Source of the DNA: a virus
Direction: 5' to 3' (one strand)
Virus genome (UHGV): UHGV-0172325
DNA: 12,537 bases
Both the position numbers and the translations under genes were made by a program. Below, piece after piece: positions 9,326 to 9,435 of this stretch. Every line of letters starts with the position of its first letter. The first letter of the stretch is position 1. Below the pieces are notes generated by a model. It made no database searches. It was not told the origin of the DNA and worked only from the letters and a program-made list of their open reading frames with translations.

Positions 9326-9435
9326 GTCCTTATTATTACGCTCTGTACTGGAACCATCCATGCACAATGTGTATTTTTACTTGTATTTGAGAAGTACATA
9401 TTGTATTTTTTATTCGTGGTTACTATGGAGGGCAT
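9326..9435. promoter_or_regulatory. OR-type operator/promoter region (divergent pRM and pR); pR candidate -35 TTGTAT (9381-9386), -10 TATTTT (9404-9409)
   Basis: Intergenic region between divergent cI and cro. Contains the 19-bp palindrome-like TACTTGTATTTGAGAAGTA (9378-9396) and the 11-mer GAAGTACATAT (9391-9401) shared with the pL spacer. cro SD GGAGG at 9427-9431. Confidence 0.5.

Follow-up and report, generated by a model that had tools for sequence, protein, structure and literature searches.

Known operators of the VT2-Sakai immunity type

The operators of VT2-Sakai-type lambdoid prophages determine the threshold between lysis and lysogeny for an immunity type that is very common among E. 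coli prophages. The Stx2a phage in O157:H7 Sakai has this immunity type too, and there toxin production is driven by derepression. Three operators at OR and three at OL (OR1-3 and OL1-3) were predicted for this phage type by Yin et al. 2015 (PMC4587872), citing Fattah et al. 2000; three 17-mers at OL and three at OR are annotated as 'putative operator' in AP005153; and the OR1-3 and OL1-3 of VT2-SA are given in Table S1 of PMC10742460, where the binding data on these oligonucleotides concern lambda CI only and show weak binding, with a micromolar Kd. The DNA described here, a stretch of 12,537 bp referred to below as the window, is a lambdoid prophage early region, and its six sites are those annotated in AP005153 and, letter for letter, those of Table S1. 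All six 17-mers are identical and in the same order throughout the VT2-Sakai (Sp5) group (Stx2 II AP005154, the Stx1-converting phage AP005153, 1717 and the PA/PST1 phages), and they also occur in AP000363. The operator set is, in other words, already known, having been predicted, annotated and used as oligonucleotides, and apparently it has not been footprinted, since the searchable literature yielded neither footprints nor EMSA nor genetics (virulent mutants) for the cognate cI or Cro. In this regard, a full-text search found the six 17-mers in no paper body and only in the supplement of PMC10742460. The present comparison adds independent support for where exactly the operators begin and end.

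The starting point was a first-pass annotation of the window, in which an 11-mer, GAAGTACATAT, was taken to be an operator shared by the two early lytic promoters. That proposal is borne out by motif statistics, distant relatives, allele variation and prior annotation, and the 11-mer is very probably part of the OR1 and OL1 operators of a VT2-Sakai-type lambdoid immunity region, at which cI and Cro would bind.

Organisation of the early region

The genes of the window to which the text refers are as follows.

1449-2399, minus strand: dATP/dGTP pyrophosphohydrolase-DUF551 gene
2946-3884, minus strand: Ea22-like gene
4038-4331, minus strand: Abc2 gene
4345-4860, minus strand: SSB gene
4861-5568, minus strand: Rad52-type recombinase gene
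5960-6199, minus strand: cIII
6631-6975, minus strand: N antiterminator, first gene of the pL operon (Pfam N_peptide, E = 2e-32)
7336-8588, minus strand: three small accessory genes
8666-9325, minus strand: cI, 219 aa, with an HTH_3 N-terminal domain (recognition helix TQGGIGHW) and a Peptidase_S24 C-terminal domain (Pfam)
9436-9651, plus strand: cro, 71 aa, HTH_3, recognition helix TQGAIGHW (Pfam)
9793-10089, plus strand: cII
10270-11091, plus strand: O
11088-12464, plus strand: DnaB-type helicase gene

cI and cro are transcribed divergently from an intergenic region of 110 bp, and the operators lie between cI, cro and N in a lambda-style layout. The N-terminal domain of cI is 98.9% identical to that of VT2-Sakai and 100% identical to that of the PA phages; Cro is 35% identical to it over 62 residues and has the same recognition helix. 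Residues 84-219 of cI are those of lambda CI except at two aligned positions, of which one falls in a crystallised mutant protein. cI is a naturally occurring hybrid, with a VT2-Sakai-type N-terminal domain that is ~30% like that of lambda and lambda-type sequence from residue 84, the lambda-matching part including the region of the Ala-Gly cleavage site.

The DNA is likewise a mosaic. The segment with OL and N, and that with the 5' end of cI, OR and cro, have ~98.8% DNA identity to Stx phages 1717 and Stx2 II, the Stx1-converting phage and the PA phages. The stretch 7200-9076, which runs from the right of OL3 through the accessory genes into the 3' part of cI, is ~98% HK97, a phage that uses lambda-type TATCACCGC operators, and the accessory genes at 7336-7986 and 7974-8381 are HK97 gp48/gp49-like. 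VT2-Sakai differs in having orf22 between OL and cI, where the window has these genes. Directly downstream of cI (8433-8588, minus strand) lies a 51-aa hydrophobic ORF with a faint PspC-transmembrane-like match (E = 0.007). Coverage of at least 80% was reached neither by any complete E. coli genome, with the whole window as query, nor by any phage record, with positions 6600-9700 as query.

Several putative control elements lie in the same DNA. Candidate nut sites are present on the two sides, nutL at ~7015-7055 (minus strand) and nutR at ~9660-9695 (plus strand), each made up of a boxA-like GCTCTTT(A/G)..AACAA and, after it, a short hairpin that differs between the two, being GTCGA-CTC-TCGAC at nutL and GGAC-ATTC-GTCC at nutR. 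Between OL and the accessory genes, at 7310-7333, a strong GC-rich hairpin of nine pairs is followed by a T-run and is likely to be the terminator that ends the cI-accessory gene transcript; it may act in both directions. A search for TTGC-N6-TTGC as a cII-dependent promoter gave no match.

The shared 11-mer and the early promoters

The predicted promoters considered here, the third of which is proposed from its sequence, are the following.

7093-7121, minus strand: pL, -35 TTGACC (7121-7116), 17-nt spacer, -10 TACTAT (7098-7093); 9/12 in the promoter scan
9381-9409, plus strand: pR, -35 TTGTAT (9381-9386), 17-nt spacer, -10 TATTTT (9404-9409); placed by homology with relatives
9332-9360, minus strand: proposed PRM, -35 TGGATG (9360-9355), 17-nt spacer, -10 AATAAT (9337-9332)

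pR was not called by a generic consensus promoter scan, in which it reached 7/12, under the scan threshold, and its placement follows from positional homology to the promoters of the SEN22, Klebsiella and Oslo phages. The counterparts in these relatives are stronger than pR, that of SEN22 being TTGCTT-17-TATTAT, and the pR hexamers of other E. coli alleles are TTGCAT and TATTAT.

GAAGTACATAT has two exact copies in the window, and still only two when one mismatch is permitted, where shuffled sequence gives a mean of 0.17 matches and reaches two in 1 of 200 shuffles. One copy lies on the pR side at 9391-9401 (plus strand), exactly as first reported. The other lies on the pL side at 7101-7111 (minus strand); the reverse-complement copy in the pL spacer had thus been recognised, its position having been given as 7111-7121 by a slip of 10 nt. 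The 11-mer takes up spacer nucleotides 5-15 at pR and pL alike and so does stand between the -35 and -10 hexamers, as had been noted. Nevertheless, the 11-mer is no unit by itself: it joins a variable G to bases 1-10 of a dyad operator of 17 bp, and so amounts to the promoter-distal half of OR1 and OL1, the primary operators, together with their centre.

Six operators at OL and OR

The first-pass expectation of several operator sites is realised in six, three per side, listed here with their ranks among the 12,521 positions of the window under a matrix built solely from sites of related phages (see below).

9392-9408, OR1, AAGTACATATTGTATTT on the plus strand: holds 10 of the 11 bases of the 11-mer; top score in every matrix
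9360-9376, OR2, ATGCACAATGTGTATTT on the plus strand: abuts the -35 of the proposed PRM; rank 5
9334-9350, OR3, TATTACGCTCTGTACTG on the plus strand: overlaps the -10 of the proposed PRM; rank 4; one of the three TAC-N5-GTA matches
7094-7110, OL1, TAGTACGATATGTACTT on the plus strand, AAGTACATATCGTACTA on the minus strand: holds the second 11-mer copy; rank 2
7119-7135, OL2, CAATACAATTTGTTCTA on the plus strand: overlaps the pL -35 hexamer; rank 3
7152-7168, OL3, TACAACGCTTTGTATTT on the plus strand: rank 6

The sites conform to a 17-bp dyad, A-A-(G/A)-T-A-C-A-N3-T-G-T-A-(C/T)-T-T, and the twelve half-sites yield the consensus A-A-(G/A)-T-A-C-A, all twelve of them having A5 and C6. In the orientation of the transcript, OR1 has the sequence AAGTACATATtGTAtTt and OL1 the sequence AAGTACATATcGTAcTa. 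OR1 covers nucleotides 6-17 of the pR spacer together with five bases of the -10 hexamer, and OL1 does the same at the predicted pL. OL1 is the most symmetric of the sites (AGTAC-N5-GTACT), and the symmetric AGTACATATCGTACT that had been picked out in pL is indeed the minus-strand reading of 7095-7109, which is the core of OL1. OR2 and OL3 each have one poor half-site and only moderate scores. From centre to centre, the operators of the window are spaced at 32 bp (OR1-OR2) and 26 bp (OR2-OR3) on the right, and at 25 bp (OL1-OL2) and 33 bp (OL2-OL3) on the left; the centres of OL1 and OR1 are 2,298 bp apart.

The specificity of this pattern was assessed by motif searches and with weight matrices. 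The bare dyad core TAC-N5-GTA has three matches in the 12.5-kb window, all within OL or OR, and a motif search across the window places the 11-mer only at the two promoters. A symmetric matrix made from those three TAC-N5-GTA sites returns all six operators within its top seven positions, and an operator that is left out in turn still has a rank of 1-8 among the 12,521 positions. The relatives-only matrix, for which 15 sites of SEN22, Klebsiella ST11-VIM1phi8.3, Oslo and Vibrio Cla were used, puts the six operators of the window at ranks 1-6, each with a score of at least 9.9; at the score of the sixth operator, random Markov-1 sequence yields a mean of 0.9 matches and a maximum of 4.

Two operator-like 17-mers outside the control regions, at 6542-6558 (AATCACAAATCGCACTT) and 7266-7282 (AAATACAATTGGTTATG), score 6.6 and 7.7 against the at least 9.9 of the operators, and the second lies in DNA common to HK97; both are probably chance matches and were taken as such. 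Both sequences occur in VT2-Sakai too.

Conservation among relatives and alleles

The related phages compared here are Salmonella phages Oslo and SEN22/PM43, Klebsiella ST11-VIM1phi8.3 and Vibrio Cla, whose repressors are 45-56% identical to that of the window in the N-terminal domain. In each of them rTAC-N5-GTAy dyads stand at equivalent places, such that the comparison with homologous immunity regions in Salmonella, Klebsiella and Vibrio phages agrees with the operator reading. Aligned across the five phages, OR and OL show invariance at the TAC/GTA cores, at ATTATTAC and at the start codons; ATTATTAC is the -10 of the proposed PRM read on the opposite strand, lies within OR3 and has a 1-nt gap in Oslo. 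In OL2 of the relatives, A.TACA...TG is invariant. The alternation of short and long spacings is also retained, with OR1-OR2 and OR2-OR3 at 34 and 26 bp in SEN22 and 33 and 25 bp in Klebsiella ST11-VIM1phi8.3, and OL1-OL2 and OL2-OL3 at 25 and 30 bp and at 25 and 33 bp, respectively. It had been held that the operator boundaries could not be fixed from sequence alone; comparative sequence, however, fixes them quite well.

Variation within E. coli is informative at a finer scale. Of the complete E. coli genomes, 5,426 in number, 776 have a 321-bp OR segment (window 9200-9520, OR with the flanking gene ends) at 90-100% identity, usually in a single copy per genome and in four cases on a plasmid. 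Among seven E. coli alleles, which are 93-100% identical, substitutions fall in the operator centres, the operator edges and the DNA between operators, and none falls in a TAC/GTA triplet. In OR2 the central bases alone vary. The most variable stretch of OR is 9379-9391; its last base, G9391, with which the 11-mer begins, is replaced by A in each of the six other alleles. The enrichment of variable positions outside a broad 36-position core is borderline (Fisher p = 0.054). In three alleles (93% identical) the central T of OR1 is replaced by C to give ATATCGTA, with which OR1 matches OL1 over 14 bases; these same alleles have a pR improved to TATTAT at the -10 and to TTGCAT at the -35. These changes give the impression that promoter and operator strength have been tuned naturally within a single immunity type.

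Alternative readings of the motif

These alleles also bear on the repeated TTGTATTT units, which the first-pass annotation had placed at 9381, 9401 and 7171 and taken to suggest operator sites. The first two positions are right and the third is properly 7161-7168; the copies at 9401 and 7161 are indeed operator halves, namely the right halves of OR1 and OL3, and the copy at 9381 is not. A fourth operator between OR1 and OR2, formed either on that copy or on the symmetric TACTTGTATTTGAGAAGTA, the position of which (9378-9396) was given correctly, is very unlikely. It would fill a gap that is unusually long at 32 bp centre to centre, TTGTATTT is an exact consensus half-site, and four OR operators are attributed to phage H-19B in a review. 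Yet the 17-mers at 9378 and 9380 have negative matrix scores, -14 and -21, and the most favourable placement, 9372-9388, has a score of 2.1, where the six operators have at least 9.9, and would overlap OR2; moreover, the relatives are without a half-site there, and positions 9379, 9380, 9384 and 9388 vary among the E. coli alleles, changing the unit to TTGCATTC. The copy at 9381-9388 coincides with the -35 region of pR and is an orphan, and the left arm of TACTTGTATTTGAGAAGTA with this copy reads TGCTTGCATTC or TGTTTGCATTC in other alleles; neither was retained as an operator.

It is also highly improbable that the 11-mer reflects nothing more than common ancestry or common design of two promoters with the same spacer sequence, in which case it would be no protein-binding site. 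This would suit the identical spacer positions (5-15) in the two promoters and the silence of the searchable literature on cognate binding experiments, but the conserved dyad reaches beyond the spacer to include -10 bases, it is found at four more positions outside promoter spacers, and the relatives retain the dyad cores while the remaining promoter sequence diverges. That the dyads are bound by some other regulator, be it a host factor or another phage protein, in place of cI and Cro is barely conceivable, as nothing specific favours it beyond the indirect nature of the case for cI and Cro, whereas across five phages of three genera the sites occur only beside divergent cI/cro and upstream of the leftward early genes, and the two adjacent HTH proteins share a recognition helix, as expected of competitors for the same sites.

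PRM and the start of cI

The -35 of the proposed PRM agrees with the AP005153 annotation. Its -10, AATAAT, is separated from the cI ATG at 9325 by 6 nt here and by 6-7 nt in the SEN22, Klebsiella and Vibrio Cla relatives; in Oslo a TAATTT/ATAATT variant stands 4-5 nt ahead of the cI ATG. This arrangement suggests that the PRM transcript starts at, or adjoining, the A of the cI ATG (9325), which would give a leaderless mRNA as in lambda. Were this so, only transcripts from read-through or from PRE would carry the AAGGA Shine-Dalgarno sequence. In RefSeq/PGAP and AP005153 cI starts at ATG 9361 (231 aa), and in one record at 9289. The relatives align at the ATG at 9325 (ATGAAAA), and the start at 9325 is the more likely one, because the 12-codon extension from 9361 would lie over OR2 and OR3.

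Proposed operation of the switch

The window has the parts of a lambdoid CI/Cro switch: a divergent cI (HTH and S24) and cro, operators of ~17 bp at both OR and OL, and O1 over the predicted pR and pL. By analogy, a cI dimer would bind each 17-bp dyad via its helix-turn-helix N-terminal domain, and Cro would bind the same sites in lytic growth. At both pR and pL, O1 takes in spacer nucleotides 6-17 together with five -10 bases, so that repressor bound there would be expected to block RNA polymerase. From its place against the weak PRM -35, OR2 could serve to activate the transcription of cI, and from its place over the PRM -10, OR3 could serve to shut PRM off (auto-repression). Two further sites on each side would complete a lambda-style switch, with OL2 overlapping the pL -35. 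Given its lambda-matching C-terminal domain, the repressor would be expected to undergo RecA-stimulated self-cleavage at Ala-Gly, with cooperativity between dimers and OL-OR looping, as in lambda.

Relative to lambda the operator spacing is rearranged, even with a lambda-type cooperativity domain at the C-terminus of the repressor, and this could point to another pattern of cooperativity. Lambda-like short spacing (25-26 bp) is found at OR2-OR3 and OL1-OL2, and OR1-OR2 and OL2-OL3 are separated by about three helical turns (32-33 bp); this layout is kept in SEN22 and the Klebsiella phage. Cooperativity over the short spacing might conceivably load OR2 and OR3 together, coupling PRM activation tightly to auto-repression and keeping repressor low, although we regard this as unlikely. 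If true, such joint loading of OR2 and OR3 would be a different route to 'hair-trigger' induction from that of other Stx phages, for which such induction has been described (PMC5977221).

Comparison with known systems

The likeness to lambda is one of architecture. In both, cI and cro diverge ~110 bp apart, three 17-bp dyads are present at each of OR and OL, and OL and OR are ~2.3 kb apart; O1 lies over the lytic promoter, OR2 beside the PRM -35 and OR3 over the PRM -10, and a leaderless PRM transcript is likely here too. The differences lie in the recognition elements and the spacing. The operators of the window are of the form AAGTACA..TGTACTT, as opposed to TATCACCGC in lambda, and the repressor N-terminal domain and Cro belong to another HTH_3 type. 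The lambda operators have centre spacings of 24/23 bp at OR and 24/20 bp at OL, against 32/26 and 25/33 bp in the window.

Phage 933W offers a likeness in the form of the operator, having a Stx-phage CI-type repressor and a dyad of two half-sites around a central base pair. Its repressor was shown experimentally to bind 15-bp operators (Koudelka laboratory; PMC3317979), with G-(A/T)-A-C at positions 2-5, a motif which would correspond to the AC-N5-GT geometry of the window operators. In contrast, 933W is of another immunity type, with recognition-helix residues S41, K42 and K46, and it has only two OL sites and no OR1-OR2 cooperativity; moreover, its operator binding is experimental, where that of the window is deduced. 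Stx2a_F765 was set aside as a 933W-type OR comparison, as it falls in the PA2 (Oslovirus PA2) group, a group linked by Yin et al. to the O104:H4 phage.

The immunity regions of SEN22/PM43 (ST64T-like), Oslo, ST11-VIM1phi8.3 and Vibrio Cla have homologous cI and Cro and the same dyads, number of sites and spacing. In these phages the third base of the half-site follows the recognition helix, being part of ATAC in Oslo (TKGAVSHW) and of TTAC in Vibrio Cla (SQSAIAHW), and the C-terminal domain of the repressor is unrelated and of a non-lambda kind in SEN22, the Klebsiella phage and Vibrio Cla. The window itself belongs to the VT2-Sakai immunity type, with which it shares both the DNA-binding domain of the repressor and the six operator sequences.
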